A DNA stretch of 64,000 nucleotides from Camelus ferus (lineage: Eukaryota). Below, piece after piece: positions 1,516 through 53,813 of the stretch. The stretch is taken from positions 58,034,001-58,098,000 of the forward strand of contig NC_045696.1 of assembly GCF_009834535.1 (NCBI RefSeq), given 5' to 3'. The notes under the pieces are model-generated. The model ran no database searches, was not told the origin of the DNA, and was given only the letters and a program-made list of their open reading frames with translations. Every line of letters starts with the position of its first letter. Position 1 is the stretch's first letter. Made by a program: the position numbers and the translations under genes.

Positions 1516-2070
1516 GACTTAACCTCTGGGAGTTTGGGGTGGGACCAGCAGTCTCAGCTGGACTAGCTGAGGTGAGGATGGCTGCGTCCTGCTCCTTCCC
1601 GCTGCTGGTTGAAGGGTCCTGGGGCCCCAACCCCCCGAAGAACTTGAGCACCAAGTTGCAGATGTACTTCCAGAGCCCAAGGAGATCCGGAGGCGGGGAG
1701 TGTGAGGTCCGCCAGGAGCCGGGGAGCCCGACCCGCTTCCTCGTGCTCTTCGACTCCAACGACGGTGAGGGGGACTAGGGGTGCGGGTGAGAGGGGACAG
1801 CGGGGCTCTCCTTCCAGGGGAAACTTGGGGCTGGGGACACGCGGCGGGAGAACCGGGCCGGACCCAGAAGCAGCTGAAGGGGAGGGCATGAGGGGCGCGG
1901 AATGGACAAGGTGCCTTGAGGGCGCTGCGGTTCCCCCTGAGCTGCGCTTCCAGGCGCTCCCGGAGGCAGACCGCGCCCGTGGGTTAAATAAACTTTTAGC
2001 ACCGTAGGACAGAAGGGAGCCGCCTGAGAGCTGGTGCGCCCACCTCATTTTACAAGGCTACATCGGAGTT
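1470..2070. promoter_or_regulatory. CpG-rich island over PARP14 exon 1 and the start of intron 1
   Basis: Visibly high GC and CpG density relative to the CpG-poor rest of the window; boundaries judged by eye. Confidence 0.7.
1578..1764 (+). CDS. PARP14: PARP14 coding exon 1 (start of RRM1)
   Basis: AGGATGG start; encodes [44 protein letters not shown]; donor G|GTGAGG at 1765; 187 nt. Confidence 0.96.
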
Positions 2071-11000: not shown

Positions 11001-13949
11001 TAGAAATATCAAACAAATTAAGAAAAAGTTAGATATGTCATGAATGCATAAAATATATGTAGATGTACGTATAATACATACAATATACAGAATATGTGTT
11101 AGTCAGCAGCTCATGTTATAGATAAGGCTTCCGGTCATCAGTAGGCTATTAGTAGTTAAGTTTGTGAGGAGTGAAAAGTTATACACAGATACTTGACTGT
11201 GCAGGGGGTTGGCGCTCCTAACCCCGTGTTGTTCAAGCTTCATCACAAGTGTATGTAACTCACTTACAGTCAACAATGGAGACGAACAAGCTGACTGGGG
11301 TGGTTACTGCTGAGCGAGTTTGAGGTAAACGCATAATTCTCTGGGCCATTTTATCTTCCATGTGTATACCCTAGTCATTCACTGCAAAGTGTCCTTTTTC
11401 CTCTTCAGTGATGGAAACTTACTGCTTTCAGAGCAAAATGTGTTAGCTGATGCCCATGTTTGGGCATTTTAGGATATCTTGTTTTCCTCCAGTGGCCTAA
11501 GCAGTAAGTCTCTCAACTTTATTGAGCCTCAGCTGTATACCATGTGCCAGCAATAGAGCAATACAAAGATGAATAAATATGTCCCTTGCTTTTGAGAAGC
11601 TTGGTTCAATAACTGTAATATGGTGCTGTGATAGAAATATATGTCAAGTGCTATTAAAAATAAGGCAGGTTCCTCAGGGAAATGAGGCAGTAAAGAGTAT
11701 AATAAAATTTAACATAATCATCGTCAGCATCACAGTAAGATTTAAAAGCTATTTTAACTTTTAATTAAATTAAGCAAAAAGTCTTCTATGATCTGTTTTT
11801 ATTTGAGTTAGCCAAGAGATCAGGAAGGGAAGATGGCAGTGGAATTATTTCATGGTGATTTACTTTGCTAAGAACATGGTAGATGAATGTAACATCTTGT
11901 ACCCTTTTTGTCTCCCTAAAATCAGATGTATCAGAAGAACTAGACGCAGATCTCTCTCTCAACGGAAGATCAGAAGAAGTGGAGAATGCTCCCAAAGAAC
12001 ATGAAAACATTTCCTCTTTGGTTGCATTTGAAAATGTCATGGCAAATATCACTGATATGATATTAATCCTGTTAGTTGAGAACATAAGCGGCCTGTCCAG
12101 TGATGACTTTCAAGTGGAATTAATAAGGGACTTTAATGTTGCTGTAGTTACCTTTCCAAAATACTTTGGTAAGATCGACTGATGCTCCATTTGCCAGCCT
12201 TCTTTGTGCTACCCTTTGGGATTTGGGACACCCAGCTTAGGGTGAAAGCTTGACTCTTTCTAGTTGCTAGTAAGAGAGGCCTCCAAGTTAATACAGGCGC
12301 TTTCTTATTTTGAAAGAGAAGCAAATTTGTTTTGAAACCAAATTCTGGTATGTTTAGTAAATCAGGCTTTACTGTATGTGTTATGTGTGTGTGCATGTGT
12401 GTGTGTGTGCGCGCGCGTGTGAAAGAGAGAGACAGAAACACACAGATAATGCACCCAGATAGAAATCTAAAGTCTCAGGTTATTAAAGTGATTCCCAGTG
12501 GAGGAGTCAGTGTTTTCCCATATGTTATCCCACTGTGGGGAGTAAATATTGATCTGTGTTACTAAACTGGGCTTACTGGAGGGTAGCAATAATGACAGCA
12601 AACACTCACATAGTGTTACCATAAGTCAGGTACTACACTAAGCTTATTCCATGTATTGATTTATTTGTCCCTCTCAACAATCTTTTGAGTTTATTATTAT
12701 TATTATTATTCCTCACCTTATGGTTGAGGAGACAGAGACACAGAGATGCTAATAAATGGAAGCACTGGATTTGAACCGAGGTGGCCCACCTCTATACAGT
12801 CTCTTCTCTTATCCCCTTGACCATATATTTCCTTAGTACTTCCACGGCAGTCACCTGTGCAGGGGTGAGTAAGTGCATGTGGTGCAGAAAATGGGTGCTC
12901 TTTAAGTCTGTGTGAGGAGTCTGTGGACAGTTTCTGAGATGATGGAAGAGTTATCTCCGGAAGACAAGGAAATTTTCCAATTCCGAGCCCTCACTAGCCC
13001 ATGGCCATGGCAGTGGAGTGGCTGATTAGGAGCACAGGTCATGCAGTCAGAATTCTAACCCCACCGTTTAACTAACTATCTGAGGTTAGCCAAGTTACTA
13101 CCTTCTGTATGCTTTACTTTCCTCATCTATAAAATGGGGACAATAATACCTACTGATAACAGTTTCCATGAAGATCAAATGAGATGATGTTTGAAAAGCC
13201 TTTAACATTGTACCTGACACGTGGTAAGGACTCAATAATGGGAGCTATTCTTATCTCAAATTTAGTGATTATTTCTTATAAAGGGAAAACTAAGTTGACT
13301 TGCTTTAGTTTATTGATCAAAAATCTTGATCTTGAATACCTACTATGTGCCAGACACTTGTCTAGGTGCGATACATACAGAGATGAATAATTCTTGGTTC
13401 CAGGTCTCAAGGAACTCCTATGGGGTAGGGAGGAAACCCATATGTAAGTGAATAATGAAGATGCAAGAGGAGAAGCTGCTTCCATCAGCTGTGAACAGAA
13501 GGCTGTGCAGAATGGGAGGAAAGGGGACCCAAACATGGTGGCTTGGTTTTCTTGAAGTTCATACTCCAGCAGTCTCAGGCTGTTAGATCTCAGATGTGCC
13601 TTGTTGTTTCATGCCGCTGCTGGTCCCTCTGCCTGAAATGTTTCCTTCTCTGATCTGTCTGGCAAACTCTCTTCATCCTTCAAAACTCAGAGCAATGACT
13701 ACTTACTCTGGGAATCCTTATCTGATTTCCCAGTATTAGTCTTCCCAAGTCATTTGATCCCCAAGTAGAATATTTGTTTGCTTTCAAGACTTCCTGCCTC
13801 TTGGATGGTGAGATTTCAAGGAACGGTTATATTCATCTCTCTATCCCCAGATCCTAGTACAGTGCCTGGTATATCATGGGCCCACTACCAATATTTATTA
13901 ATTTGAAAGAGATAATTGGGCTGAGTCCTGAAGGAAGGACAGGACCAGG

Positions 13950-13987
<38 letters not shown>

Positions 13988-16566
13988 CTGGAGAAGGGCA
14001 TTTTCGGCACAGGAAATTGTATATACAAAGGCAAAGGAGAATAGAGTTTTCAAAATAATGACTAGTTTTGTGGCAATATGGGAAATAAAGTGAATGGTAG
14101 GGAATAACCAGAGGTGATGTTTAGAAACCAGTTGGGAGTCAAATAGCCAAGGTCATTGTAAATCTGGCTAAGGAGTGTGACCCATACCTGCAGACAGTGG
14201 GGAGCAAGTGAAACGAGGAGATTTGTACTGCAGAGAGAGCACTCAGGTGGTGGTGCCAGGCAGGTAGTGGAGAGGGCTGGGTCAGGGCAGGGACTCAGCT
14301 CAGTGTCAGTGATCTAGGTAAGACATTCCTGTGTGCATTGCCGTTCGGAGACTGGAAGCTTTAGGCATGTAGGATCTCATGTGGGAATTAAAATCTTCCA
14401 TTTAAAAATCACGTGCTTAGCCTCCCCCTTTATCTCAATTAATAGACAGTTTCTTCTCTATAACATAAAGATATAATCATAATTTTCTGATTGATTAATT
14501 GATTATTGTTTGTAGATGCCGTGAAATTTGTTGATGACTGTGCCACATACCATTCAGTGAAAAAATTTCAGCTTTCTGCAAGACTCCTGGAAGTGACAAA
14601 AACAATCAGGGTGGAAAACCTGCCGCCTGGTGTTGATGACGATGATTTGAAATGTTTATTTGAAAATCCCCATAATGGAGGGGGAAGAGTTGCCCACATT
14701 GAATGTTTTCCTGAAGAGAGTTCATCTCTGATTGAATTTTTTGACAGAAAAGGTAATATCTATTAGCCTGATTTTGTCAACCTTAACTGGCATAATCTAA
14801 GCCATTTTAGCAGATCTTAACAGTTCTCAGTTGAATTCTGATGTATTTTATTTTTTATTCATATATTTTATTGGAAATCCAGCTAGTAATCCTGTTTACC
14901 TGGTATATGATGCTTAATGAATCCAGTGATTCAAACTTTAGAGAAGCAACATCAAGTTTTTGAAAGCTATAAGGAGATTCTCTCATGAGTCTCTACTTAT
15001 GGACTGAAAAATATTTAATTCTTAGAGTATTTGAGATATTGTATTTAAACAGAGGTGGCCTGTGTTTTAGCTATACACTCGGTAGAGATTTTCAAGTTAA
15101 TTTCAACAAGGTTAGGTAAAGAAATACTCAGAAACACATACAATTCCCATGAAGTATCACTGACTTCCCCTTTCAGTGTCGGTGTCATCATTCAGAAATT
15201 AACAGGGGCAGTTTCACATGATCAGTGGATGACTGCTGGCTTGTTCTTTGGCATCACCCTGTGAAAACCACATCCAATTGAACCTTAGGGAAACACTTCT
15301 GAGGATTTCGTAGACATAGATTGCCAGTTCTCTGAGGCATGTGCGAGGTCAGCTTGGAAATTCCACTGATGTTCAGAAGTCAAGACTGAGGAGTAGGAAT
15401 TAGGGAGTCAGACTTCTTAGGGAAAGAAAGAACATTGTGACTGAGGGTGCATGAGGCAGGATCCTGTGGTATGCCAACCACCTGAGATAAATTTTTTCTT
15501 GGGGGTACTTGGAAGAACCTCCTTCAGTTTTGATGAGCTGGGGAAATGGCAGAGAAGGTATGGTTTGGATTAATATGGAATGAAAAACCTACTGTTCCTT
15601 GGGCAAAGAGACAAAAAGGAGCATCTGTTGTGTGTTCTTTAAATCTCTTAACCTAGCCTTGGGCCTGAGGAGAGAGTTATGTAAAGCTATCCACTCTAGA
15701 AGTTAACCTCCCAGCTTATGGTGGGAGCTGACAACTTTGGGGCTTTCAAACATGTCAAGGGCATGGGGCAGTTGGGTATGTCCTCAGAATGTCTATGTTA
15801 CATGTGTACGAATAATAGTAGGAAATTTTAAATTCAGGTGTGTTTTAGGCTAGAACAGCACCTGTGAACATCAGGCAGGCTCACATTGCCCTTTGCCCTA
15901 ACCTCTTTGCACCATCGGACTGTGTTGACCACGCCTCCTCCTCTACGTTCACTCCCTGTTCTCCGTGGTCTGAGATACCCTGACTTTCCCTTTCTCCCTC
16001 TGGCTATGCCTTATAATTATGGCTTACACTGGCATAGCTCTGAAGGGTGCTACCAAGTGCATTCACAGACAGTGCTTTAGGGACATTGCTATTATTGTCA
16101 TCCCTATTTTATAAATGAAGAAACTGAGGCACGGAAGGTCAGATAACTTGACCAAGGTTACACAACTAGTAAGGGACAGAGCCAGGATTTGAATCTGGGA
16201 AGTCTGGCCCCACAATCTGTGCTCCTAACTTCTGCACTTTTCCCCAATCTCCTGTTCATCTATAACATTAATTTTTCTTGTAGGATATTTCATCACTTAC
16301 AATGAGTTACCAGTAATGAGGAAAATGTAAATAACGCTGGATTAAAACCAGAATTTATTTAGCAATATTGTATTTTATATAGATTATTTGAGAGGAATAA
16401 ATTAGGCACTTTACTCTGAAATTATTCGGTCCAGCTTCACAAAATCTGATTCACAGTCTCAAGGAAGGGAACTCTTATTGAATGCCTGTTATGTATGAGA
16501 TCTCTTGCTGTGTTTTCTGCCACAGGTATCTCACCAAATACTCATAATAACCTGCATGGTTATATA

Positions 16567-16599
<33 letters not shown>

Positions 16600-19500
16600 A
16601 GAGGAGGAAACAGGATGGAGAATGTAAGACACATTAAGGTGACATCTGTGATGGTTCTTGGGTCAGACAGACCTGAGTTCACATTCCTGGGTTTGGTGCT
16701 TACTAGCTTTGTGATCTTGTGGAGGTTCCTTGCACCCCCCAAACCTCTATTTTTCACCTGTAAAAGGGGGCTCACATTACTACTTACTGCAGAGGAATCT
16801 TGTTGTGAGGATCAAATGAAATTGCACCTGCAGAGTGCTTGGCACATGGTGGATACTCAGTGGTGCTGCCCAGGCCCAGAGCCTGTTCCAGGCCATGGTG
16901 GGACCTTGGAACCATGTGTCTGGGCCTATGAAGGCCACGTTCTTTTCATTAGGTCTGGCTCCAGGCCTAGGAACCAATCACATACAAGGTGAAGTTATTT
17001 TTAACAACTTTTCACAAGGTGGTATTTTAATCTGAGTTGTTACTGAGGTTCGTTCTGATTCCCTTCCTGCTTAGACCTCTTGTATCTGTCTTATAACTAA
17101 CACAAAGTGAAAAGGGGCTTTGGGGAGAGGAGTACCCCTACACCCACACCCACACCCACACGGGCACGTGCGACTGTCCCAGTGAAAGTGGCAGGAAGGG
17201 GATTAGAGCAGGGATGAGGGAGGTGCAGAACGTACTGAATCTGGGGCTGGGCTGTTTGATGACTGTGAGGATCATCTTGGTTTGGAACCCATGGTAGAGG
17301 GACAAGGGCTTTGGAGTCAGACAGACACTGACTTGAATCTTAGCTCAGATATTTATAGTCTGCATGACCCTATTCAAGTTACCTAAGTTTTACTAGATTC
17401 AGCTTTATCATTTATAAATAGGAATGCTAATAATAGTGTCTCTACCTCAAAGGGTTGTTGTGAGGGTTAAATATATGTAAACCACTTGGAATATTGTCTG
17501 ACACACGGTAAGCTATGGTAATTCCTATTATGCGCCTCCCCTTAGGAGTGTTAATGGCATCTAGGTCATCTATGAAATCTAAAACCGTGCGGCTGCACAA
17601 GAAGCAGATAGTGTGACTCCTCGATGAGCTTTGCTCTGAGCACAGAAATATTCTTCACACTGTGGCAAACATTTCCCCACACTGTGACCAAACTCCACTC
17701 TCTTTCTTAACCTGGTGGTGGTGTATCAGTGTTATCAGACACACAGAAAATAGAATTTCTGTAACAAAATTTCAACCTAGAGTGTTCTTGGCTGGAAAGT
17801 AATCATTCCATGAAACAAGGGATACCTGTGCACTGGTAATACACATCAGTTTACTTTTAAGTGCTCTGGGAGTAGTGCCACTTTTTAACAGCATGTGGTA
17901 ACATCAGAGTTCTACAAACATGGGGATTTTTTTCCCTTAGAATAGGAAAGTCTGTTTGCTTGTTTTTTTTGCATCTGAAACATATTACACTGGGATTACT
18001 TTTTTTTTTTATTTCTTTCCTTTAAGTGGTAGACACCATCCTGACCAGGAAACTTGACCTCAACAATATGCCACTCTCTGTGTTCCCGTATTATGCCTCT
18101 TTGGGCACAGCTTTGTATGGAAAGGAGAAGCCTCTGATCAAGCTTCCAGCACCATTCAAAGAATCACTGGATCCTTCCTTATGGAAGTTCTTTGAGAAAA
18201 AGAATTACCTGACTAAGGAGATAAATGATGAAGTGAAACATTGTCACTGTGAGCTAACATGGTGCCAACTCAGTGGTGAAGTGACCATCAGACCTACGGC
18301 CACCTTAGCCAGTCAAGGGAGACTAAGAGTTAAGACCTGGCGGAAAGATGTTTCCACAGTTTTCTCTGGCATCAAGTCTAAATATAAAGTGACCCCGTTT
18401 AAAGTGGAGCCAGTGGTGTGGGATGCCATAAAAAACGATTTAGAAGATGATAGGATTTTGATTGAGTTTGATGCACTCACAGGGATGGTAACCTTAGTGG
18501 GGAAGTCAGAGGATGTACAAAACACTGAGCCACACATCAAGGACTTAATAGAAAGTACCACTCAAAAAATTAAAAGAGAAGAGCAAAGTCTGAAGCAAAA
18601 ACTGGCCATTCCTCCAGGAAAGTATTCGCTTCTGCTGCACAGTGGTGTACAGGAGCATCTCCGCACCGAGTGCCCAGAGATGGAGTTTTATTATGATGAA
18701 GCTTCTCAACACATGTGCTTCAAAGGACTCCCTGAAGATGTGTATAAAGTGAAGTGTGAAATTCAGGAAAAGGTATACACCATGGGTCAGAAAAAGATTC
18801 AGCTTCCCCCTGAGGTTTTCCAGTTTCTGCAACAGGTAGACTGTGTGGAATTCTCTAAGTCTCTTTTTATAACACAGAATATTCTTGCAATTTATGAGCT
18901 AGAGGGCACAACTGTTCTCTTAACCGGCTCTTCTACTGAAGTCCTGTTAGAAGCCGAAAAGCAAATGATCAGTGCCTTAGATTACAAGCTCATCAAAGTT
19001 GAGGACAGGGAAGTTCTTAATGGCAAGAAATGGAGAGGGCTCACTTCCAATCTGCATAAGAAATACAATTCCTCCTCAGAGACTGTCATCATTGATGAGG
19101 TAACTTCAGGAACCACAGCCCAGGTCGTCATCGCAGGCTGTGTGAAAGAAGTAAATGAAATCCATGACTTGGTTTCTGCCTTTGTGGAAAAACACATGAA
19201 AATAGAGAAACTGATTGAAGTAAAGCCTTCCTTAGTTATTGATTATTTAAGGACAGAAAAGCTATTCCGGCAAAAGATCAAGAAGGTAAATGTTCAGGTA
19301 AGTTTCAATCTTGAGGACAAGCAGAAGGGCATTTTGCTAACTGGCTCAAAGGCCGAAGTTCTGGAGGGAATGGACCTTGTCAAACAAGCCTGGGATTCGG
19401 TCTGCGTTAAAAGCGTCCATATTGACAAGCCAGGAGCCGGTCAGTTCTTCCAGGACAAAGCACGGTATTACAAAAGTGAGGTCAGAAGGTTATTTGGTTG

Positions 19501-22500
19501 TCTTATTGAACTCCAGAAGGATGAAGAAAAGGAGGGAGGCAGCACTGGTGGGCAGCGGTGCTTGTTTCGGACAGACCTGGCCCCTGGGGTCTCGCTGATC
19601 GTGCAGCAGGGCGACCTGACGCAGTTTCCCGTTGAGGTGGTGGTGAATGCGGCCAGTGCAGACCTCCAGCTCACAGGTGGCCTGGCTGCTGCTCTTTCAA
19701 AAGCCGCTGGCCCTGAGCTCCAAGAGGACTGTGACCAGATAGTGAAGAAAACAAAGGGCAAGATCTCACCTGGCTGGGCCGTCATCTCAAAAGCAGGAAA
19801 GCTCCCATACCACCACGTGATCCACGCAGTCGGGCCCCAGTGGAAGACAGAGGAGGCCCTGAACTGTATGTGGCAGTTGAAGGGAGCTGTGAGAGAAAGT
19901 CTCCATTTGGCTGTAAAACACAAGTACCAGTCGATAGCCTTCCCTGCCATCAGTTCCAGGGCCTTTGGCTTTCCCTTGCCTCAGTGTGTGGAGACCATTA
20001 TTTTGGCGATCAAGGAATGTTTCCAGTATACCTGGGCTGGATGCAGCTTGAAAGAGATTTACCTTGTGGATGTAGCTGAGAAGACCGTTGAGGCCTTTGC
20101 TGAAAGTGCAAAAACTATATTTAAAAGCACCCTGTCTGATGCTGCTTCCCTGCCCACTTTGCCAGCAGCAGTCCAGCCCAGCTTGAGCAGAGATCATGGA
20201 AACACACCCAGCCTGTTGTCCCCAGAAGGCCTGAGGATCCTTCTGGTGAAAGGAGATGTGCAGAGTGCCACAGTGAGTGCCCCATGTACAGAACACCCAC
20301 CCCGGGGGCTGGGCCTCCAGGGAGCCTGTTGCCAAAGGGCGATTAATATCCAGGGGAGAATCTCACACCCTCCATCCCTGCCTCGAAACAGGTTTCCTTA
20401 GAAAACTGGGCTACTTCCCCCAGGCATTCACTAGTCGAGATTGGCCAATGATCTGTGGGAGCTGATAGCATATTCAGATCACTAATTTCCAGGAAATGTG
20501 AAAATTCACAATTATACCTTACATGGTCAAGGCTCTACACTCTTTCAGTGCCTTGACACCTGTCATATGTTGGCAAATCTCAGGTTAATTACTTGTCAAA
20601 TTTACTGCAGATACAGAAAAATTAGAGCATGAGATGGGGACAGAGGACAGGAATTTTGTCAGTGGCATTGAACCAGGGGGCACTGAGTCTGAGGCACCAT
20701 CATCACCCAATGCCAGTAAGAAAATGTGGGGAGAGGTAGAAAGTGGACCCGACAAAGGTCTGGGTATTATGTAGGGACAATTCTTATAGGTCTGCCAACG
20801 TGGGGGGGGGGTGACATGTTTTTTTAAAAAGGTATTTAGCAACCTTTTCAACACAGACTCTGACTAGTCAGAACAGCCCTGGGAGCCCCCTGCTGTGCCA
20901 AGTGTGCCGTCCTCAGCTGGGGACCTGTGGGCAGTCCTAGGGCAGGGATTCCTAGGGAAGGCCGTTTGCATATCTTCTTTGGAGAAAAGTCTGTTCACAT
21001 CCTTTGCCCACTTTTTAATAGGGTTCTCTTTTCTGAAACTGAATTCTAAGATTTCTATATATATTCTGGATATAGATCCCTTACCAGATAGATAATTTGC
21101 AAATATTTTCTCTCATCCTGTGGATCATCTCATTTTTTGTTGTTGTTCAAGTTGTTAGTTTGTTTAAAATAATTTTTGTTTTAGTTTAAAATATGGAAAG
21201 AGACTATAAAAAATTAGATTTCTACTTACAGTAAGCTTAAATCCCGACTACAAGAATGATAGTGAACACTGCCTGTTTGCTCTGCGCCAGGCACTATGCT
21301 AAGTGCTTGGGATGCATTTTCTGATTCAATGCTGTGGGGCAGATTCCAGGAGTGTTATTATTCTCATGTCACAGGTGAAGGAATGAGATTTAGAGGGGTT
21401 AAGTGATTTGCCCAAGTCCCACAGCTAACAAATGACAGAGCCAGGATTGGGATGTTCATTGCACTATTTCAAAATAGTAAAAGTAACTTTGTGTCTCATT
21501 TTAAAAACTAAACAAATAAAGAAAAAAACTCTTTTGACCAAGGGTCAGTAATTGGAATGAGTTCTGATCCCTGTCCACCTTGAACACTAACAGTAAGACA
21601 TTCCTTCCATGCCTTTCACTCCCATAGATTTGTGGCTTCTGATGCTACAGCACCTGCTTCACATCACTCTTCTGTGACCCACGCGGGGCAGCTTTGAAGG
21701 TCACTTGGTCACGTTCCCTCTCCAGTCTCCTCTTGGTGTCTTAGTCAAGCCTGATTAATCTGCTCACCTTAACTGTCCTGCTGAAAAAGCTTCCCTGGCT
21801 CTTCACTGCTGTCAGGCAGGCCCGGCGGCTGGGCACCCGAGACCCTCTGCAGTCCACCCTCAGTGTACCATTTCTGGCCTGACTGGCACCATTTTGCTGC
21901 AGAAGCTCTCTATCCAGGTCAAACTAATTTGCTTGCTGCTCACAATCGACCACGCTTCCGTTCATGTGGTTGCCCCTCCTGAACGACCTCCCTGTCTCTC
22001 TCTGCCTGCTGCAACTGTTCCCACCTCTCAGACCCCACATCCCTCATGGCGTCTTCATGAGCCTTCAGTGTTCCCATGCCATTTATGCATTGCTTTTTGA
22101 CGACTCTCTTTTGTTCTGGAGGGTTATTTAAACAGGTATCTAATAACGCTTAGTCTCAAGGTGGTATTTCAATCTCTGAAAAGTTAATCATCTTAGTTGT
22201 CCTTCATTGTGCCAAGCCCAGTGGCTCAAATATAGAAATCCTTGTTGGATGTTTTTCTTAGACTTTGAAACAAACTGTTGGTTTTGTCTTCAAGACCGAT
22301 GTCGTTGTCAACTCCATTCCCTCGAATCTTGAGCTCAACAGAGGGCCCCTTTCCAAGGCCCTCTTAGAAAAAGCTGGGCCAAAGCTTCAGGAGGAATTGA
22401 ACACTGCTGGACAAGGGGTGTCTGCTGGCACGGGCACGGTCCTCCAGACCACTGGCTGCAATCTGCCTTGCCGCCGTGTGCTTCATGTGGTGGCTCCGGA

Positions 22501-25500
22501 GTGGAGAAGTGACAACACATCTTCACACAAGGTGGGAACTGGATTTGAATTCTCTAGGAAACTGGGTAGCCCTTTGGACTCTCCTTTCCGTATAATGTAT
22601 AATGTATAATGTAGATTTCAGTATAATGTAGATTGGCCCCTGTCTGTTTCTGTTCTGGAATAGCATTACATTCTTGGCAGGTTCCATCATCCTGGCCATT
22701 TCTCTCAGCTCTAGCTGACTTCTCCTCAGGACTAGTTAATAATAGAAATTTATTATAGTGCTCAACCATTATTGGGGCTCGGGGAAGAGTTACTGAAGAT
22801 AACACTCTTTAGTGAGGAAGGCAAGGTGAGGCCACGAAGAATGGAAGAGAATGAAAGATCAGAGCAGTAGTTGCTTTGCTTCAGTCCTTCATTGCTGAGC
22901 AAGTTTGAATCTTTTTGGAGGGTCTCACACATTCTTACTCCCTTTTCCTCATCTAATCCTTTATTTTTCTTTCCCCTTCTGACTGTCCTTAACCTGCCTT
23001 TTGTTGAAAGCAAAAAGGAGTAGACAGAGATCACAAAGTTGCTAACTTCTTGTTCTTTTTTTTTTTTCAAATTGCCATTTCTAGGCAAAATGTATAAGAA
23101 TGTGCCTTGTGCTTTTCAGATCATGGAAAACATAATCAGAGAATGTTTGGAAATCACTGAGCGTTTTTCCTTAAGATCAATTGCATTTCCAGCAATAGGA
23201 ACAGGAAATTTGGGGTTTCCTAAAAATGTTTTTGCTGAATTAATCACTACAGAAGTGTTGAAATTCAGTAGCAAGAATCAACTGAAATCTTTACAAGAGG
23301 TTTGCTTTCTGTTGCACCCAAGTGATCATGGAAATATTCAGGTACGGTCTTATGCTTACTCATTTTTTGGCATCGGAGCCCTAACAAACGTGTGTATTCT
23401 TAGTCTAAAAAGTTGTATTCTTTCATGTATTTTCATACAGGAAAGTAAAAGAGTAGTGTGGACTAGTTGTAGCATGGAAAATTTCAAGCAAATTTATGGA
23501 TATAGAAAAAAATTTGACTTCTTATTAAGAAACATTTCAAACATATAAAAAAGTAGACAAAATAGGATAATGAAATCCCTTGTCTTCACCATTCATCTTC
23601 ACAACGATGCTTCATCTCTACCTCCATTTATTTCCCTTTCTCCCATATTATTTTGAAGCAGATCCCATATATACATTTTACCCTTAAACAGTTCAGTATT
23701 TGTTTTAGACATTAGGATTCCTTTTTAAAAGTAACCTAACTACAATACTATTTCACACCTGAAAGAAATTAACAATTATTCCTTTATGTCATTAACGATC
23801 AAGTCGATGGTCACATTCTCAACAGTTTCATAAATATTTTCTTTTGTTTTTTTATAGCTTGTTTGTTTGAATCAGAATCCAGATAAGACCCAAATATTGC
23901 AATGGAGTCAACGTATCTCTTAACCCTCTTTTAATCTATAGAGTTTTCTTTCATATGAACTTAGAAATTTTAATACATAATATAAAAGTACAGTTGTAGT
24001 CCTGTAAACAGGAGAATGGCAGGATGAGATGCAATTGAAGGGTATGTTAGAATGAACTCAGCACATCCCCCCAGGACTAGGACAGTTGGGACCAGAAATA
24101 CCAGAACCATCTTCGGTCATAGAGAGTTCATCAACCAGCTCACATTTGCTGAACATCAGCTGTGGATGAGTAACTGGACTCGGCATTATGGGAGAACCAT
24201 AATAAGAGGCCATTCTCCCAAGTCCTTAGAGTCAGAACAGTAGATGAAATTAAATGTTTGAGAAGTCCTATGATAGTGCAAGAATTAAACATATTAAGGC
24301 CAGCAACCCAAGAGATGTCCATAGATCATTGGACCAACTGAATTTTTAGATCATACTTAATTTTTTTCTGGATCTAGACACTACCTTTGAATACTTTGGA
24401 AGTAAACAAATCTAAATTCTAATCAGACAACTAAACCACCCAGGAAAAATATGTGGTCCATTTAGTTGGCCTGTATAACCAAAGTCATTTCTAGTCAATA
24501 AATGCTTTTTGAACAACCTCCCTTTGACTTGCATTGTACAAGGTGATGTGGATCACAGAACGGGCATGTAGAAATACTCTCCCTCCCATAAATCATAACT
24601 CCTTTGGGAGCTAAGATTTATACTCATACAATGAACTAAATCAGAGATGTGAAGTGCTGAGAGTTTTTGAATGAATGGCTGAGTAAACAGGGAAGTGAGT
24701 CCTGTGACACAAATCTGAACCTTCAGATCTCACTATTTCTATGCAGCCTCAGCCTTTGTTTTCTTTCCTAAAGACTCAGAGTATTCTGCAAGTATTCTGT
24801 AAAAGGATTTGTCTATTCAGACACCTGTATTGCCATTGGAAATAGTATTGATTCTCCATACATTACTGTGACACTACTTCTTTTAAGACTTTTAAAGACA
24901 ATTGAGCTTTGGTTATAGTTCCACAAAAAATCAATAAATCTTACTGAGATATTTAGGGGTGGACAGATGTAACAGATGTCACAAAACAGCAGCCCGTGGT
25001 CTGAATGTAGCCTCTAGGTGTGCTTTATTTGTTTTTTTTTTTTTAAAACACTGAATCAGTTGCTGACACTTAAGAACCAAACATGTCACATAAAACTCCA
25101 GATGTCCACTGTAACCTAAAAATTCAAAAGTCTGGCACACTGGACATGGATCTCTACCTGAACAGTTTGCTGTGGCTGAATGGCTCTCTAGTTCTCCAGC
25201 GTTGAACCAGTCCACCTTTACACCTGTAGGTTGCCTGCCTGGTCACTGGAGGTCTTCAAGCTTGAGACCTTGTGTCTATATTCTCTCAGTTCCTCTGTCA
25301 TTATTGTATCAGCCTTTTAGCCAAGATGTTACTTGTTCCCCGCCCCACCACCACCAACAAAATTCCCTGTTGCTTTTTCAAACGGAGGAAGAAAATGATG
25401 ATTTGGGGGTGTCACTACCAGGCAAAGAAATAGAATTCCAGCCTATTGCTCCAAAAACACTACTCCCCTAGCCTACAAATAAGAAATTAAAATCTGAAGT

Positions 25501-28500
25501 GTTTGGGTCCTTGCGATTGTCTTTCTCTTAACACTGTATTTTTAACAACTGCAGGCTTTTTTCTTTTACTGATTATGAAAGTAATGCAATGTCATTGTAG
25601 AAACTTTGAATAATATAAAAATACTTAAATTCTTCTAGTTGTGTATCATCCTGGTCTTTTATGTATATGGACTTCTAAAAGTGGGATTATATAATGTAAT
25701 TTAGTATCATTCTTTTTTCATTTAATAGTATAAAATAAGCATTTCTCTATGCCATTAACTATTCTTTGAAAATGTGATTTAAAAATAAAGATTTTTATTT
25801 GTTTATTTATTTTTATAATGGAGGTACTGGGAATTGAACCCAGGACATCATGCGTGCTGAGCATGCACTCTGTGACTGAGCTACACCCTCCCCCTGAAAA
25901 CGTGATTTTTAATGGCTGCTAAATACTAAATACATATGGACCTACTAAAATTTATTTAACCATTTTCCCATTGGATTTTTAAACTGTTTAATTTTTTTCT
26001 TGATTATAAATAGTATTATAAAGAATATCTTAGTATTTATACCTTTGTTCACGTCTTTATAATTTTCATAGTATGTATTTATCAAAATGGAATTTATGTA
26101 TTTTCTCATAACTTAGAAATCTATAATAAAAATAAATAATACTTTGAGAATTGTTCCCTCCTGAACATTTGTGCATGCAGGATCAAAAGTCTTGATGACT
26201 CAAATTCATTCATCTACTGAGGACTGTAGTGGTCAAAACTGTCTTTGTATTTACAGGCATTTTCAGATGAATTTGCCAGAAGGGCTAATGGAAATTTCGT
26301 CAGTGACAAAATTCCCATGGCTGAAGACACACAAGGTTCAGTAAAACTTATAAATTGAGACATTATTTCTTGTTGCTAAATAACTATTCAGTGATAAGTG
26401 AAAAATGATAGGATGATTTTTATGAAAAAATCAATTTGTGACAAAGAAGATATTAAATTATATTCCATATACCTGGGCATGCAAGGCCCTGGCCATGTTT
26501 GTGTGATCTGGAGGGAAAGAGTAGGCAGGCCAGGCTATATAATCTGCACAATGGGCTCTTAAACAGAGACGAGGCTACTATTTTCTAAGGATGATGTGAT
26601 ATGTGTTTTCAGAAATAGACATACTTAAAGAGATAATACCAACCGAGAGCTTCTCCTCTGTCAAAGTTACTGTTGTATATTTGAGTTTATCCTGTTTGAA
26701 GTTTGCTGAGGCTTCTTGAATCTGAATATGCATGTCTTCCGTCCAATTTGGGGATTTTTCAGTCATTTCTCAAATATATTTTTCTGCACTGGTCTCTCTC
26801 TCCTCACCTTCTGGTGCTCCAGTAACATGGATGGTAAGCCTTTTGATAATGTCCCATAGGTCCTTGATGATCTGTTCTTTTTTTTTTTTCTGTCAATCTT
26901 TTTTCTCTCTGTTTTTCAAATTGGATAATATTTATTGATCTACCTCCAAATTAGCTGACTTTTTTTTCTGTCTACTACACTATTGAGCCTATCCTGTGAG
27001 TTTTAAATTTTAGACATTGTATTTTAAAGTTCTAAAATATCCACTTGATTCTTATAGTTTATATTTCTCTACAGAGCCTCCTATTTTTCCATTAATTCCA
27101 AATCATTTCCATGCACTCAAATATGTTTATTCTGACCTCAGGGAGCATAGTTATAGTAGATGCTTTAAAGTCTTTGTCTGACCATTCCAGCATCTGAATC
27201 ATCTTGAGATTAGCGTCTGCACCGAGTGTCTTTATCCTTGAGAACTGGCCACGTTTTCCTGGTTCTTTGTATGATAAGCGATTTTCAGTTCTAGAATGAG
27301 CATTTTAAACATTATGTTGTGAGACTTGGGTGCTGGTAGAATCCTCTAGAAAATGGTGATTGTTTTGTTTGCTTGTTTGAGCAGGCAGCCAATCAGTTAA
27401 CTTCATTCTAAAAGTTCCGCCTCACCTGTGTGGGCAGAGGTTCCAAAGTCAATTGCATTCTCAAGGACGTTCCTGTGCTGCTTGGGTCTGCCCCATGTGC
27501 CCAGCTCTGGGGTGCGCTCAGGGTTGACACTAGTTCACACACAGAACAGGGGGTCACCTTCTCCGGCTCACCTCTCTAGCATTCCCATTACACTCTCTGA
27601 CTCACAGGAGCCTATTTTCCAGGTCCTCTGGCCAGAAAGACAAGGTTTTCTCAGAGCTGAATCTGCCTGGTTGTTCTGTTGCCTCATGGTTTTGTGTGAT
27701 CAGGGTTGCCCTTGGGCAAAGCAGAGAGAAAAGAAAGGGCAGGGGTAGGGGGGTGAGGCGGGGGCAGAGCAAATAAACAAAAAACCAGGGATGTCCCATA
27801 CACCACATAGACGCTTTTCAGACTGATTCTTCTAGACAGAAAGACAGAATGTCTCTTAGGGTTTAGCTCCCAGCGGTGTCACTGTTGAGTTCTGCAACCA
27901 GGGCACCTTGGGACAGGGCCTGGATTAAAGAAGGAAAAACATGGAAAAAGAAAAGATGAGGCCTCTTTGCCATATGCTTCAGCTCCCAGGGACCCATTTT
28001 CTCAACCCTCTGGCCACAAAGACAGGGGTGCTCTGAGAGTTTTGCTGCCTGTTTCACTAGGTTGGTCTGCGACGAGGGCCACGCTTGGGTCAAAGCTGGA
28101 AGAGAAAATGAGGGAAATTTTCAAAACACAACAAAACAGGAAACTCTCCTCTGTACAGGCTGCTGCTTCAAGTTTTGAACCCCTCCCTTCAATCTGCCTG
28201 CTGTGGTGAACTTCTCATTTCTCAGGGAGGGGCTTTTTGTATCTGTCCCACGTTTTTAGTTATTACCAGTGGCAGAGAAATGCTCGAGTGGGCTGACCAC
28301 CTTGGCCAGCAGCAGAGGTCCTCATTTGATATGTATTACATTTTATAATCCTTTTCCAGAAACAGACCATCACAGGGGCTCAGGGCCAGGGCCAGGTTAA
28401 ATGCCACAAGTCACAGAGAGAGTGAGGGGGAAGGATGAGAGGGGCAGAGGTGAGGACCATGAGATCTAGTTAATTCTTGTTGTTGCTGACCTGTTACTGA

Positions 28501-31500
28501 CCCCTCCTGCCTTTTTTTTTTTTTTTTTTCCTTGTCAGGTTCCCATGGGACTGTTTCTAGCCCTGATTTAGGAGTGTATGAAACGAAGATTGGGCCCATC
28601 ATTTTCCAGGTAGCCTCTGGAGACATTACCACAGAAAAGGCAGATGTGATCGTTAATTCAACATCCAAGACATTTAATCTCAAAACAGGTACTTGACTTG
28701 TAGAATTTTGACTAGTGTAATAGTCACAGTAGACCTGTAAAGGAGATTTCCTACAGCCAAACTGGTTTCTACAACTTTGGCTTCTTACTATTAATTAGTA
28801 ATTTAAAAGTTATTTTGACACTGTTTCTCATAATTGGTAACAGCTCTTTCATCGGTTTTTTTTTCTTCATTGTTATCGGGAATACCCAAGTTATAGGATT
28901 CCTCTGATGATGGGGAAAGTGTATAGATAGAGGATATCACTGTGATCCAAAGGTCCTGTAATGGCTTTTTTATTCATGTGCATTGCAATCTTGACTTTCT
29001 CATGTAGGGGTCTCCAAAGCAATTTTAGAACGTGCTGGGAAAACTGTGGAAATGGAATGTACTCACCAAGGTAAGGCACAACGCTATTTTATTGGATCTG
29101 AATTTTAAGTGGCAGACTGAATACGGGAGGCTGTGGAGGATGGGGAAGGTCTTGAGATTGGGGAGACAATATAGTGATCTTAAAACCATACCTTTTACTA
29201 AGGAGTTCCAGCTGTAGAGAATTAGAAATGAAAACTAATCTCTGAGTTAAAAGAGAAGCAAGAAAGATTCATTAAAGGTAGTATTCCAGGAGTCTCTGAT
29301 CCACATAAAATGTTTTATTTGCCAATTCAGATATTTTCAAAGAGTGGGTTCAGCACCTACTTTTGCATCTTTTGTCTTGTGTTTCCCAGCTCAACAGGGA
29401 CACAGTAATTATATAATTACCCAAGGAGGATTATTGAAGTGCAAGAATATTATTCATGTCATTGGTGGAAATGATGTCAAGAACTCGGTTTCCTGTGTTT
29501 TGCAAGAGTGTGAAAACCGGAATTACTCATCCATTTGCCTCCCAGCCATTGGGACAGGTTTGTAGCCTCTAGCCGTAGAGGCTAAATCCCAAGGTGGCCA
29601 CTCCCCCCGGATTTGGTGCTGATGGTTAACGTGGTTAATGTCATTACTGCTGAGTCTGTGTCAGGGCACTTCCTCACCCCAGGGCAGCCCCTGAGGGAAG
29701 TAGCAAAGCCTGGGGGCAAAGCAAAAGAGGAAAGAATGAAAAAAACTGGAGTGTTGGGATATTAAAAATCTGCTTTCTCATATGGACAGGAAGGGAGAGG
29801 AAGGAAGGGGGAGAGAAAGAAAGCCCACCTCTCATCGCTTTCATCAGCTCCTTCTCTTTTTTTCGATCCCCTGCATATCCCTCATTATTTAGTCTTTAAC
29901 CTCCCGCTCCAGCACCCTCCATGGAAACATCAGAGCATGGACCTCAGCCTCCTTGTGGCTGACTCCTAGTCAGCATGGCCACTCCTCTTCCCTCACCTCT
30001 TCAACAGTAGTAGGCTGGCCGCAGGGCATCTGGGCCTCTCAGTCATCAGAACCTTTTTATGGGTCAGAAACTCAACCCTCCACCTTCCTCGTTTCAGCCT
30101 GCCTGCCTCTTTGGAACTTCTTGTTTTCTTCAAATTACGTAATGATTGTATGAGTCTTCCTTTATAAGGATGGTGCTTTGCGTTTATCATTTGTAAGGTG
30201 GTGCTCTTTGAGCTCTTTCCCAGGAATCTGAGTTGTGTGCACTGATCAGGAATTCCAGCTTGGTCGATTTTAAGGGAGCTGCTCAGGGGAGGCAGACAGT
30301 CTCAGGCTTGAAGCGGAATAGAGCTGATTGGTCCCAAAGAGAGCACGCTCAGCACTGGATTGATTATCCCATTGCTCAGGAATCTAAGTTTGAGTGTCTC
30401 ACGCTGGCATTCTAGGCTCTCCAGAAGTGTAGCTTCAATAGACCTAACCATCCTTGTCACTTTCTGGGCCGTCTTCTAATCCTCTATCTCATAGTTTGAT
30501 TTCTCTTATTTTTCATTCCTCTTAATGTTCCCACATGGACTGCTATGTCTGCTTTATTAGTTCTCTATTTCTAAAGAGTGAAACTTACACTCCCTTTATG
30601 CTTTCATTCCCTCATGTATCTTCCAGTCCTAACGTATTATCTGTCTGTCTGTCTGTCTACCTATCTCCCTATCATTTTTTATGGACACCCACTAATGACT
30701 CCCCAGTCTCCATCTCCATCTGTTTTTCCCTCTGAGCTCCGGTCTTGTGTTTCCACCTTAACTTTATTTGTGCCAAGAAATCAGGCAGCCAAGGGTGGCA
30801 CAGATCTTTTCAAGGAAGTCCCTGGGTGGAGTCACAGAGGAAATAAGGAAAATTTTAGTTTTGTATAAATATTTCTGGTTACTGCAGACCTGTTGTTTCT
30901 TCCATGGACCTGGCTGCATTGCTGGTCTGCATAAATAAATCAAGGTTAGCAAATTCTCCTTGCTTGTCTTCTTTACCTATCTCCACCACCACTTTAGATG
31001 AATAGGGGAGCTTCCTCCCTCAGTGGTGTTTATGAGTTGAATTGGGACTGTGATCGAGACAGTTTCTGGCAGTAAAGGAAGCCCTCTCCTCATTCCTCAC
31101 AGACTCTCTCCTCACTCGAGGGGAGGGAGTGGGCAGTCGTGGTTCCTGCAGGCATCTCAAGCTCAAAGCAAACTCCAAACTCTGTGCACTGTCTTCTCCC
31201 CGAAACCTGCCCTTCCTCTTACATCCTGAGCCTGTTAAAAGCGTCACTTTCTGTCTAAGATCCTTGACTCTATCCTCTTTATCACTTCTGTGTGCATTAG
31301 CTTCTTAATTTGTTTGATTGAATATTTAGTGAGTGCCTACCATGTGCCAGGCACTGAGCTGGGGTACCAGGGACAGAAAGATGACTAAGAAAAGGGTCCA
31401 GTCCATAAGGGGTGCCCGGCCTACTGTGACCCACAGACACATCAACAAACAGCTGCCGTGCAGTGTGACTCATGAAATACACATGAAGGTCGTAGGACAA

Positions 31501-53200: not shown

Positions 53201-53641
53201 CCAAATCACTCTCAGTTCATTCTGCCTCTGTTGGCCCACTAACTGGATGCATTCCCACCTGTGTTTGTGTGTCTGGACTCTAAAAAATGGTTGAACAGAT
53301 GGTAATTGTGAATAAATGTTCCAGAAGGGCTCAAGTACCCAAGTCTTGAGGCTTTCTCTTAACCTGAATAAAAGTGACGGTGTGGGCTCGTCTTCCTCCA
53401 CAGTCCTTTCTCCTCTTCACCAGAAGGGGGAGCTGTGTTCCCTCCTCCCATCTCCTTTCTGTGACCCCTGGAGCAGGGAATTGTGTGCAAAGCCTACAGA
53501 TGGGGAAGCTACCTTCCAATAGCAGAGCAGCAGGGAGGGAACCTTGCTCATTTGTACTGCTAAGGATGCAGGTAAGGACCTGAAAGAAGTTAGAGCTGAG
53601 ATGTCCACAGACAGGTCACCCATGTGTTGAAGCTCCATTAC

Positions 53642-53813
53642 CTGTCCTGGGCTCAGTGTAACCGTATGTCGTCGAGCTTTCTGGAACTGAGGAAAACGCT
53701 TTACGTCAGGATTGACAACGTTTATTTTACTGAACACACTAGATTCTTCATAAGGGATTCTAGTTGGATAAAGGAAAGGAGTATCTTCAGGAGGAAAGAG
53801 ATGCCATCTTTTC
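53642..53813 (-). CDS. HSPBAP1: HSPBAP1 exon (JmjC core)
   Basis: (R)KRWHLFPPEDTPFLYPTRIPYEESSVFSKINVVNPDVKRFPQFQKARRHTVTLSPGQ; 172 nt. Confidence 0.95.

Follow-up and report, generated by a model that had tools for sequence, protein, structure and literature searches.

Replacement of three active-site motif residues in the first macrodomain of camel PARP14, a probable weakened or lost ADP-ribose eraser

Introduction

The antiviral enzyme PARP14, which is induced by interferon, can both attach mono-ADP-ribose and take it off again, and the Mac1 domain of coronaviruses erases the same marks. In the human protein the first macrodomain (MD1) removes ADP-ribose from Asp/Glu-modified proteins, PARP14 itself included. 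The question raised by the locus described here is whether this domain can still act as an eraser in the camel, where residues of its active-site loops have been replaced. The locus lies in a window of 64,000 nucleotides from Camelus ferus, which is the whole stretch of DNA that was analysed, and a first-pass annotation of that window had claimed that MD1 lacks its catalytic Asn and a neighbouring His, and had inferred that its hydrolase activity is reduced or lost. Several coronaviruses have camelids as their natural hosts, so that the innate immunity of these animals would differ in a relevant way if their PARP14 could not erase its own marks.

The PARP14 gene of the window

The window contains a single, intact and transcribed PARP14 of the Camelus genome (Table 1). 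All 1791 residues of the Camelus ferus PARP14 record (isoform X2) tile exactly onto the forward frames in 17 pieces, and tblastn with alpaca and camel proteins agrees with this exon structure, so that the first-pass identification of the gene as PARP14, of the domain as MD1 and of the reading frame as intact stands. Pfam identifies RRM1-3, KH1-6, KH8, three Macro stretches, a WWE and a PARP domain in the camel protein, which together with the exact tiling gives the domain order of a PARP14 orthologue (three RRMs, KH repeats, three macrodomains, WWE and ART). The descriptively named matches among those listed are PARP14 or poly(ADP-ribose) polymerase (14), which places the protein with PARP14 over PARP9 or PARP15. 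Loop 1 is read in frame within an open frame of 791 codons (18026..20401). In the transferase (ART) domain, none of the 67 residues that are invariant in mammals bearing His829, one of the MD1 residues discussed below, is altered in the camel.

Table 1. Features of the PARP14 locus, numbered from the first nucleotide of the window
Feature	Position	Strand	Content and basis
PARP14 coding region	1578..42021	+	17 exon pieces; first 1578-1763, last 41734-42021
Large exon (end of RRM3, KH1-6 and MD1; residues 276-1024)	18026..20272	+	Open frame, Pfam, exact tiling
Macrodomain 1 (MD1), 200 residues analysed	19541..20140	+	E 8e-80 to human PARP14 MD1 (3Q6Z)
Loop 1 (catalytic loop)	19646..19681	+	AAT GCG GCC AGT GCA GAC CTC CAG CTC ACA GGT GGC
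Ser819, AGT	19655..19657	+	Human Asn824, SARS-CoV-2 Mac1 Asn40; N824S in human numbering
Leu824, CTC	19670..19672	+	Human His829, Mac1 His45; H829L in human numbering
Loop 2 (diphosphate loop)	19946..19975	+	Human sequence AISSGVFGFP
Arg920, AGG	19958..19960	+	Human Gly924, Mac1 Gly130, MacroD1 Gly270; G924R
Macrodomain 2 exons	22262..23341	+	Reader type; genome search, tblastn, tiling
ART (transferase) domain exons	36351..42021	+	Pfam, tiling; LFHGT, GTYFA and YPEYLITF as in orang-utan

A six-frame search of the whole genome found one locus that matches MD1 at 100%, the next being the MD1 of PARP9 at 42%, and at the sensitivity of this search there was no further paralogue with an intact MD1. 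All 74 sampled 31-mers, which span 19300-20100 although coverage of the two loop-1 codons by them is not guaranteed, are present in 18 sequencing runs, ten of which are not possible sources of the assembly. Three of the 18 are labelled RNA-seq and contain all of the sampled words; this exon stretch of PARP14 is transcribed.

The first macrodomain and its replaced residues

The camel domain is the orthologue of human PARP14 MD1, an active ADP-ribosyl glycohydrolase to which it is 69% identical (PDB 3Q6Z and 3VFQ, E 8e-80 and 4.5e-99 respectively). It is recognised as a Macro domain by Pfam (PF01661, E 3.9e-31), and its AlphaFold2 model, with a mean pLDDT of 89.6, superposes on 3Q6Z with an rmsd of 0.9 Å and a TM score of 0.98. 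There are no indels in either loop. Human loop 1 reads NASNEDLKHYGG at the aligned place in 3Q6Z and 3VFQ, within the wider stretch ...VVVNASNEDLKHYGGLAAAL..., so that the differences Asn to Ser and His to Leu are real.

Active domains are characterised by two loop motifs, N(6x)GG[VLI] and G[VIA][YF]G, according to PMC10470015. Neither is found in the camel. In loop 1 (N-x6-G-G-[V/L/I]) the Asn is replaced with the glycines and the Leu kept, and loop 2 (G-[V/I/A]-[Y/F]-G) reads R-A-F-G. The role of the base has been given either to a His before the glycines or to an Asp/His dyad after them (PMC7729036, PMC9140965 and PMC10470015); the camel domain has Leu at the His position and, as in human, no Asp after the glycines. 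Like the human domain it keeps G831, G832, F926 and G927, and unlike it carries N824S, E825A, H829L, Y830T, G924R and V925A. In camel numbering the first Asn of loop 1 is residue 816, giving Ser819 and Leu824, and the human number of the loop-2 Gly was counted along the alignment from G832 (PMC10499325) and from F926/G924 (PMC10470015). Human numbering is used below unless camel residues are named.

The sequence and its in-frame reading confirm both the Ser and the Leu codon that had been reported in loop 1. Each is also, as had been claimed, a single base from the expected codon, AGT from AAT and CTC from CAC, a comparison made on camel DNA, with other species compared as protein only. The earlier list of motif changes was incomplete, the third and probably heavier change, G924R, being absent from it.

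Relation to other macrodomains

SARS-CoV-2 Mac1 is of the same mechanism class as PARP14 MD1: it has the NAAN motif, its His precedes the glycines, its loop 2 is of the GIF type, and a catalytic Asp is absent (PMC7729036, PMC10470015 and PMC9140965). Asn40, His45 and Gly130 are kept in Mac1 and none of them in camel MD1, the equivalence of these positions following from motif alignment and the numbering of those papers. The reader macrodomains of PARP14, MD2 and MD3, resemble camel MD1 in having neither the catalytic Asn nor the His. At the place of His829 the MD2 of camel, orang-utan and turtle carries Leu, and the S-x-D-L-Q-L of turtle and newt MD2 resembles the camel MD1 loop. In sequence camel MD1 is far closer to active MD1s (69% identity to the human domain) than to MD2 (39% identity to its own MD2 and about 30% to that of alpaca). 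Position 924, which is Arg in camel MD1, is still Gly in the readers.

In the same genome, the paralogous MD1-type domain of PARP9 is encoded on the opposite strand some 70 kb upstream and is 42% identical to PARP14 MD1. Unlike its PARP14 counterpart, this domain is fully canonical (NAANEDLIHGGG and SSGIFKFP), and the erosion is therefore specific to PARP14.

Distribution among camelids, other mammals and distant relatives

Loop 1 is identical in all 15 of the camelid protein records listed, which come from Vicugna pacos and three Camelus species and from several assemblies. An alignment of 68 mammal species was made with one chosen protein per species from 134, leaving out isoforms, unnamed, short or low-quality records and the extra paralogues of Myotis, Talpa, Sorex, Erinaceus and Condylura. 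In this alignment Asn824 is kept in 60 of the 68 species, and N824S is the sole camelid-specific one of the three changes; it is derived on the camelid stem (N819S in camel numbering). His829 is replaced in 32 of the 68, including all 21 of the Fereuungulata sampled, that is every cetartiodactyl, perissodactyl, carnivore and pangolin, and G924R occurs in 11 of 12 cetartiodactyls, being common to whales, hippo, pigs and most ruminants. The first-pass description of an MD1 without Asn and His is thus right in that both are replaced, but the His to Leu change is no feature of camels, and a comparison across mammals of the kind it had proposed singles out only the Asn.

Further motif lesions are present in 28 of the 32 species without His829 versus 13 of the 36 with it. 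In donkey, Pteropus, Condylura and armadillo, Leu829 is accompanied by all eight other motif positions intact.

The homologue listing, limited to at least 55% identity, omitted four non-mammal proteins, which were examined separately. These turtle, plover and newt records contain six MD1 copies, all with Asn824 and all reading NASNE[DE]LKHIGG and S[SG]GIFGFP, which is the ancestral state. Of 150 more distant MD1-like representatives, two were dropped and 148 had a match spanning both loops. Asn824 is present in 131 of the 148 and Ser824 in five, in each case with other departures from the canonical motif; Leu829 is found in 14 and Arg924 in two, and all three changes together in none of the 148. 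Three of them combine Leu829 with an otherwise intact motif. Because Leu829 persists in such a setting, His829 may not be indispensable.

Conservation of the remainder of the domain

Outside the motif, camel MD1 is conserved, with no sign of faster evolution. With all nine motif columns excluded, none of 37 MD1 residues invariant in His829 mammals is altered in the camel, compared with one of 257 in the other domains. Derived changes on the camelid stem number 4 at 123 informative sites in MD1 versus 59 at 984 elsewhere (Fisher p = 0.30), and 7 of 190 MD1 sites differ between camel and alpaca, a proportion like those of the other domains, which range from 1.7 to 4.4%. A pseudogene or a relaxed MD1 in the camel was considered and is rejected by the complete tiling, the 0/37 count and the lack of a stem excess. 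Across mammals, in a comparison of species that are not phylogenetically independent, non-motif invariant sites of MD1 are changed at 2.5% in species without His829 and at 1.2% in those with it, the figures for the other domains being 1.28% and 1.27%. The conserved remainder, the retained loop-1 glycines and Ala-Phe-Gly of loop 2, and the persistence of Leu829 in otherwise intact motifs could be signs of continued selection on the ADP-ribose site, and hydrolysis could be the selected trait.

Mutational and evolutionary background

The importance that the first-pass annotation gave to the Asn and His is upheld in the closest enzymes studied. The published mutants are of other proteins, viral Mac1 and MacroD1, and carry Ala/Asp or Val/Glu replacements, not the Ser, Leu and Arg found in camel PARP14; within that limit, SARS-CoV-2 Mac1 N40A has less than 10% and N40D less than 1% of activity with ADP-ribose binding retained (PMC10499221), N244D, G334V and F336L (nsp3 numbering) nearly abolish activity on PARP14 (PMC7729036), mutants of His45, the proposed general base, have substantially lower or no activity (PMC9140965), and MacroD1 depends on G270, the G270E mutant being dead (PMC5787345). 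For PARP14, F926A strongly reduces activity (PMC10470015).

Natural variants of PARP14 MD1 were assayed by Delgado-Rodriguez et al. 2023 (PMC10221186), the sole such paper found, which describes recurrent loss of MD1 activity in bats, ruminants and carnivores. The camel is like these cases in having an intact PARP14 ORF with replaced motif residues, and it shares Leu829 with cow, little brown bat and brown bear (a congener of the assayed polar bear) and Arg924 with cow. It is unlike the three in that it keeps the second Gly of loop 1 and the aromatic residue of loop 2, one or both of which they have lost, and in that its Ser824 is scored there as compatible. The requirements set out there are Asn/Ser and Gly on the flanks of loop 1 and only a hydrophobic and an aromatic residue in loop 2; the camel has all of these (S...GG and A-F). 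Cetaceans, which share Leu829 and Arg924 with the camel, are stated there to retain the catalytic residues. The origin of the 'Ser' in 'Asn/Ser' was not found in the available text, which does not mention camelids, one Camelus bactrianus macroPARP accession being included in Supplement S1. A literature search turned up no assay for any camelid MD1 and none for Asn to Ser at this site.

Proposed explanation and alternatives

Taken together, the comparisons make it probable that camel MD1 retains its fold but is weakened or dead as an eraser. This is the best reading because the rest of the domain is conserved, the model lies 0.9 Å from the human structure and equivalent mutations reduce hydrolysis. 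Camel MD1 keeps its predicted fold and its non-catalytic conserved residues alongside three motif substitutions. In relatives, the Asn replaced in Asn824Ser makes the catalytic loop stiffer and forms hydrogen bonds with the distal ribose at its 2''/3'' hydroxyls. The buried His of coronavirus-type macrodomains, lost in His829Leu, positions a water at the 2''OH and is the candidate general base; PARP14 MD1 has Ala where MacroD enzymes carry the catalytic Asp. Gly924Arg affects the diphosphate loop, G[VIA][YF]G, at its first Gly. Most likely, ADP-ribosyl esters are in consequence hydrolysed poorly or not at all.

A domain altered in this way would persist in a non-catalytic role, whether as a reader of ADP-ribose or as a structural partner of MD2/MD3. 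By sequence, MD1 may have a reader role, as 37/37 non-motif conserved residues are kept, with Arg924 atypical of the readers of the family. In that case camel PARP14 would be a writer and reader of mono-ADP-ribose with no eraser of its own, erasure being left to other enzymes such as PARP9 MD1. The weakening or loss of hydrolysis, the substitute role and a downstream rise in PARP14-dependent ADP-ribosylation are inferred, the last by analogy with the human G832E mutant (PMC10499325). The changes were acquired stepwise: His829Leu predates the camelid lineage, Gly924Arg dates from early cetartiodactyls, and Asn824Ser, together with Glu825Ala, appeared on the camelid stem earlier than the split of camels and alpaca.

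The main alternative, which is unlikely but has some weight, is that camel MD1 is still a working hydrolase in which Ser819 bonds the distal ribose, perhaps via water, and Leu824 and Arg920 (camel numbering) are tolerated on a fast-evolving surface. By the rules of PMC10221186, camel and whales keep the needed residues, both loop-1 glycines, the Ala-Phe-Gly of loop 2 and the 37 other conserved residues are retained, four Leu829 species have every other motif residue, and the macrodomains of PARP14 evolve under positive selection (PMC4038475; PMC13224862). Against this, the available text of PMC10221186 lacks a basis for its 'Ser', only 5 of the 148 distant MD1-like domains have Ser, each of them with other motif changes as well, and three positions are replaced together where single equivalent changes in Mac1 or MacroD1 cut activity at least tenfold in the published accounts. 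Moreover, position 924 is Gly in all three reader macrodomains of the family that were sampled, which makes Arg924 unusual even for binding.

Decay of MD1, or of PARP14 as a whole, under relaxed selection, with the active-site changes as one part of it, is very improbable. The twofold excess of changes at MD1 invariant sites in species without His829, with other domains equal, would agree with it, as would the loss of PARP15 in alpaca and camel (PMC4038475), but the camel itself has none of the 37 sites altered and no excess on the camelid stem, its divergence from alpaca in MD1 is ordinary, the ORF is complete and the exon stretch is present in three RNA-seq runs. An error of assembly or sequencing that hides true AAT and CAC codons, which the first-pass annotation had wished to see checked, is effectively refuted: it is excluded for loop 1 because all 15 listed camelid records, from four species and several assemblies, share the residues, and the 18 runs with all sampled 31-mers include the ten independent of the assembly.

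Wider reading

Recurrent loss of MD1 activity in mammals is already published, and the camelid case adds incrementally one more lineage of motif replacement. It also points to two motif positions, His829 and Gly924, that the published classification does not use; if they matter, the timing and frequency of eraser loss would be wider than the published picture. A tentative extension is that the PARP14 eraser was lost more widely than in the three isolated lineages published: His829Leu would have disabled or crippled it in the common ancestor that pangolins and carnivores share with hoofed mammals, and Gly924Arg would have been a second blow in early cetartiodactyls. Such an old loss fits the replacement of His829 in 21/21 Fereuungulata, the 28/32 versus 13/36 species with further lesions and the roughly twofold relaxation seen only in the group without the His. 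If it is true, a writer-plus-reader PARP14 would be common to whales, horses, cats, camels and many bats, and the changes of ruminants, arctoid carnivores, vespertilionids and camelids would be later erosion of an already silent site. Mammals without a host eraser would be those in which PARP14-dependent ADP-ribosylation differs in its regulation.

Active-site loops of camel macrodomain 1

The exon that encodes the catalytic loop (loop 1) of PARP14 macrodomain 1 (MD1) lies within a 791-codon open frame, with which the loop is in frame and whose Pfam matches comprise the end of the third PARP14 RRM, the PARP14-specific KH domains 1–6 and a Macro domain. The 200 residues round loop 1 match the human PARP14 MD1 structures 3Q6Z (E 8e-80) and 3VFQ (E 4.5e-99). 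Compared with human loop 1, which reads NASNEDLKHYGG in the printed alignment, the camel carries N824S, H829L and Y830T, and in the diphosphate loop (loop 2), where the human sequence is AISSGVFGFP, it has Arg for the first Gly of the G[V/I/A][Y/F]G motif. Human numbering was anchored on the published mutants G832E (PMC10499325) and G924E/F926A (PMC10470015) by counting along the camel–human MD1 alignment, which gives N824, H829, G831 and G832 in loop 1 and G924, V925, F926 and G927 in loop 2. The Ser and Leu codons noted in the first-pass annotation are confirmed, because they are read in frame and the alignment with human MD1 shows the differing loop. Their camel protein numbers, Ser819 and Leu824, hold in an alignment of 68 mammals, and the observation is extended by G924R, which that annotation lacked.

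Features of the camel PARP14 locus and its neighbours (window positions, except PARP9 MD1, which is given on G000:C1 of the same genome)
Feature	Position	Strand	Remark
Exon pieces of the C. ferus PARP14 record	1578 to 42021		17 pieces
Short coding piece	7376-7408	+	residues 105-115
Open frame with loop 1	18026..20401	+	791 codons
Region sampled for 31-mers	19300-20100		
MD1 loop 1	19646-19681	+	AAT GCG GCC AGT GCA GAC CTC CAG CTC ACA GGT GGC
Ser819 codon AGT	19655-19657	+	human N824
Leu824 codon CTC	19670-19672	+	human H829
MD1 loop 2	19946-19975		
Arg codon AGG, loop-2 first glycine	19958-19960	+	human G924
Camel MD2	22262-22534		
Cupin_8 (JmjC-like) match	53417-53836	-	E 6e-12, open frame
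PARP9 MD1 (L002)	57981777-57985337	minus strand of locus	NAANEDLIHGGG + SSGIFKFP, fully canonical

Integrity of the gene and its neighbours

The best database match is alpaca PARP14, and Vicugna pacos, Camelus dromedarius, C. bactrianus and C. ferus all have named records in its 90% cluster. Placed end to end, the exon pieces account exactly for the 1791 residues of the C. ferus record, and therefore the window is an Old World camel PARP14 locus with an unbroken coding region, which bears out the earlier statement that the reading frame is intact. One 11-residue piece was missed by tblastn and recovered only by exact tiling. A domain search finds the full PARP14 architecture, and the transferase domain has the strings LFHGT, GTYFA and YPEYLITF as in orang-utan.

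Loop 1 is identical in all 15 camelid records listed, and hence its residues are fixed in both camelid tribes; in these records loop 2 is ISSRAFGFP for the camels and ISSRTFGFP for the alpaca. Eighteen sequencing runs each contain every one of the 74 31-mers sampled from the region (evidence of presence only); eight of these runs are possible sources of the assembly, and the remaining ten, from six studies, include three labelled RNA-seq. With the same residues found in four camelid species, an assembly artefact is thus excluded.

A six-frame search of the 2.09-Gb genome shows this MD1 to be single copy, the next match being PARP9 MD1 at 42% identity, about 70 kb off on the opposite strand; at that sensitivity the whole genome yielded no further PARP14 whose MD1 is intact. 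Whilst the PARP14 MD1 is eroded, the PARP9 MD1 keeps the full motif, so that the erosion affects PARP14 specifically and the locus still has a related eraser close by. The Cupin_8 open frame probably belongs, as an exon, to the next gene downstream of PARP14, which by human synteny would be HSPBAP1.

Distribution of the three replacements

In the alignment of 68 mammal species, one author-chosen protein each from 134, Asn824 is replaced in eight, by Ser in camel, alpaca, pig, seal, badger and Rhynchocyon, by Thr in brown bear and by Asp in hyena. His829 is replaced in 32, namely 12/12 cetartiodactyls, 2/2 perissodactyls, 6/6 carnivores and the pangolin (21/21 together), 7/13 bats, star-nosed mole, tarsier, armadillo and anteater. 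Arg924 is found in 11 of the 12 cetartiodactyls (camel and 10 of the 11 others, including three cetaceans) as well as one bat. All nine motif positions of the two loops are canonical in only 23 of the 68. The cetartiodactyl exception is reindeer, which has Gly924, as has fallow deer among the database matches; this looks like a reversal. Two of the aligned proteins deviate in ways that look like annotation or isoform artefacts rather than biology: the Neophocaena record P0005 differs at 17/65 otherwise invariant transferase residues and the Perognathus record P0104 at 5/46 MD1 residues.

In four records from turtle, plover and newt, all six MD1 copies have NASNE[DE]LKHIGG and S[SG]GIFGFP, and therefore Asn, His and Gly are ancestral. 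A search for distant MD1-like domains found 150 representatives, two of which had no match across both loops and were left out. Among the remaining 148, positions 824, 829 and 924 have the ancestral residue in 131, 120 and 138, and the camel Ser, Leu and Arg in 5, 14 and 2, respectively; in all five domains with Ser824 the motif also departs from the canonical one at another position, and the camel triple occurs in none of the 148. By simple comparison with outgroups, N819S and its neighbour E820A fall on the camelid stem. Hence, of the two changes in the first-pass annotation, Asn to Ser stands as a camelid event, but His to Leu is no camel peculiarity: alignment comparison indicates that it and Gly to Arg are older than camelids and common to other lineages.

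Constraint on the fold

Changes on the camelid stem affect 4/123 informative MD1 sites against 59/984 in the rest of the protein (Fisher p = 0.30), informative sites being those conserved in other cetartiodactyls and the outgroup Scrotifera. Camel and alpaca differ at 7/190 MD1 sites, inside the range of other domains. With the nine motif columns left out, residues invariant in His829-bearing mammals are changed in the camel at 0/37 sites in MD1 and 1/257 in other domains. An AlphaFold2 model of camel MD1 (35-sequence alignment; mean pLDDT 89.6, 81–86 in the two loop regions) superposes on 3Q6Z at 0.9 Å with a TM score of 0.98. Decay of MD1 in the camel is rejected on the absence of a stem-change excess, the unchanged invariants and the predicted intact fold. 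Because of these comparisons and the model, the fold and non-catalytic surface are taken to be under constraint, with changes concentrated in the active-site loops.

Expected effect on hydrolysis

By published work, the macrodomain of SARS-CoV-2 nsp3, Mac1, is the relative of PARP14 MD1 that is closest in mechanism; its Asn40 binds the distal ribose, and kcat/KM falls below 10% in N40A and below 1% in N40D with ADP-ribose binding kept (PMC10499221). Removal of PARP14-made ADP-ribose is nearly abolished by N244D, G334V and F336L, corresponding to Mac1 N40, G130 and F132, and His249 (H45) is described as key to positioning the distal ribose (PMC7729036). Mac1 His45 holds a water on the 2''OH, its mutation substantially lowers or eliminates activity, and it is the proposed general base in macrodomains without the MacroD Asp (PMC9140965). 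For PARP14 itself, a catalytic-loop His or Glu is named as water activator, F926A strongly reduces activity and G924E could not be purified (PMC10470015), and G832E markedly raises cellular PARP14-dependent ADP-ribosylation (PMC10499325). The hydrolase MacroD1 requires Gly270, G270E being its standard dead mutant (PMC5787345). By the common motif and the residue numbers used in the papers, Mac1 G130 and, presumably, MacroD1 G270 are equivalent to PARP14 G924.

Camel MD1 has positions 824, 829 and 924 replaced together, with no alternative base nearby, and because of this we consider it fairly likely that the domain is a weak or dead eraser within a preserved fold. The reduced or lost activity proposed in the first-pass annotation is plausible but unproven, and the one classification rule in print contradicts it. 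In the study of Delgado-Rodriguez, Ryan and Daugherty (2023), human MD1, mouse MD1 and a coral MD1 were active, activity was inferred to have been lost independently at least three times (in vespertilionid bats, in ruminants, and in carnivores except cats and dogs), and cetaceans, three of which have Arg924 in our alignment, were stated to retain the catalytic residues (PMC10221186). Their criteria for compatibility, 'Asn/Ser and Gly' flanking loop 1 with a hydrophobic and an aromatic residue in loop 2, score camel MD1 in our alignment as compatible, and this is what speaks most strongly against a weak or dead eraser; that the domain is still an active hydrolase we hold to be rather unlikely. 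The text of that paper does not mention camelids, with one Camelus bactrianus accession in Supplement S1. The camelids are a further, undescribed case of a published phenomenon, in which mammals have repeatedly lost catalytic residues of PARP14 MD1. The matches listed for PARP14 and camel, by titles and abstract openings, include no study of camelid PARP14 MD1, and 'camel' occurs in PMC12363162 only in the reference list. A 2026 PARP14 Perspective mentions rapid evolution, with no mention of species-specific loss in its sections 6 and 9 (PMC13224862); PARP15 is reported as lost in alpaca and camel (Daugherty et al. 2014).

The conserved pocket argues for putative ADP-ribose binding by camel MD1, whereas Arg924 argues against it, as the readers of the family, MD2 and MD3, have Gly there. 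Loop 1 of camel MD1, S-A-D-L-Q-L, is close to the S-x-D-L-Q-L of turtle and newt MD2 (records P0002, P0004 and P0030), and Leu at the His829 position is also found in MD2 of camel and orang-utan; this likeness may have arisen by chance or by convergence on a loop of reader type.

A possible order of loss at the active site

Leu829 also occurs in the sequences of cow, little brown bat and brown bear, the last a stand-in for the polar bear that was assayed. Of the species without His829, 28/32 have additional lesions among the eight remaining motif positions (mean 2.4), versus 13/36 with it (mean 0.4). Non-motif MD1 invariants are changed at 2.5% without and 1.2% with His829, and those of other domains at 1.28% and 1.27%, a roughly twofold relaxation seen in MD1 only. 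Both contrasts are descriptive and not a test, as the species are related. The pattern fits a tentative scenario in which His829Leu came first and erosion of the site followed in many lineages; if true, loss of MD1 activity would be older and wider than published. The scenario is possible but doubtful, and what counts against it is that in donkey, Pteropus, star-nosed mole and armadillo every other motif residue is intact beside Leu829.
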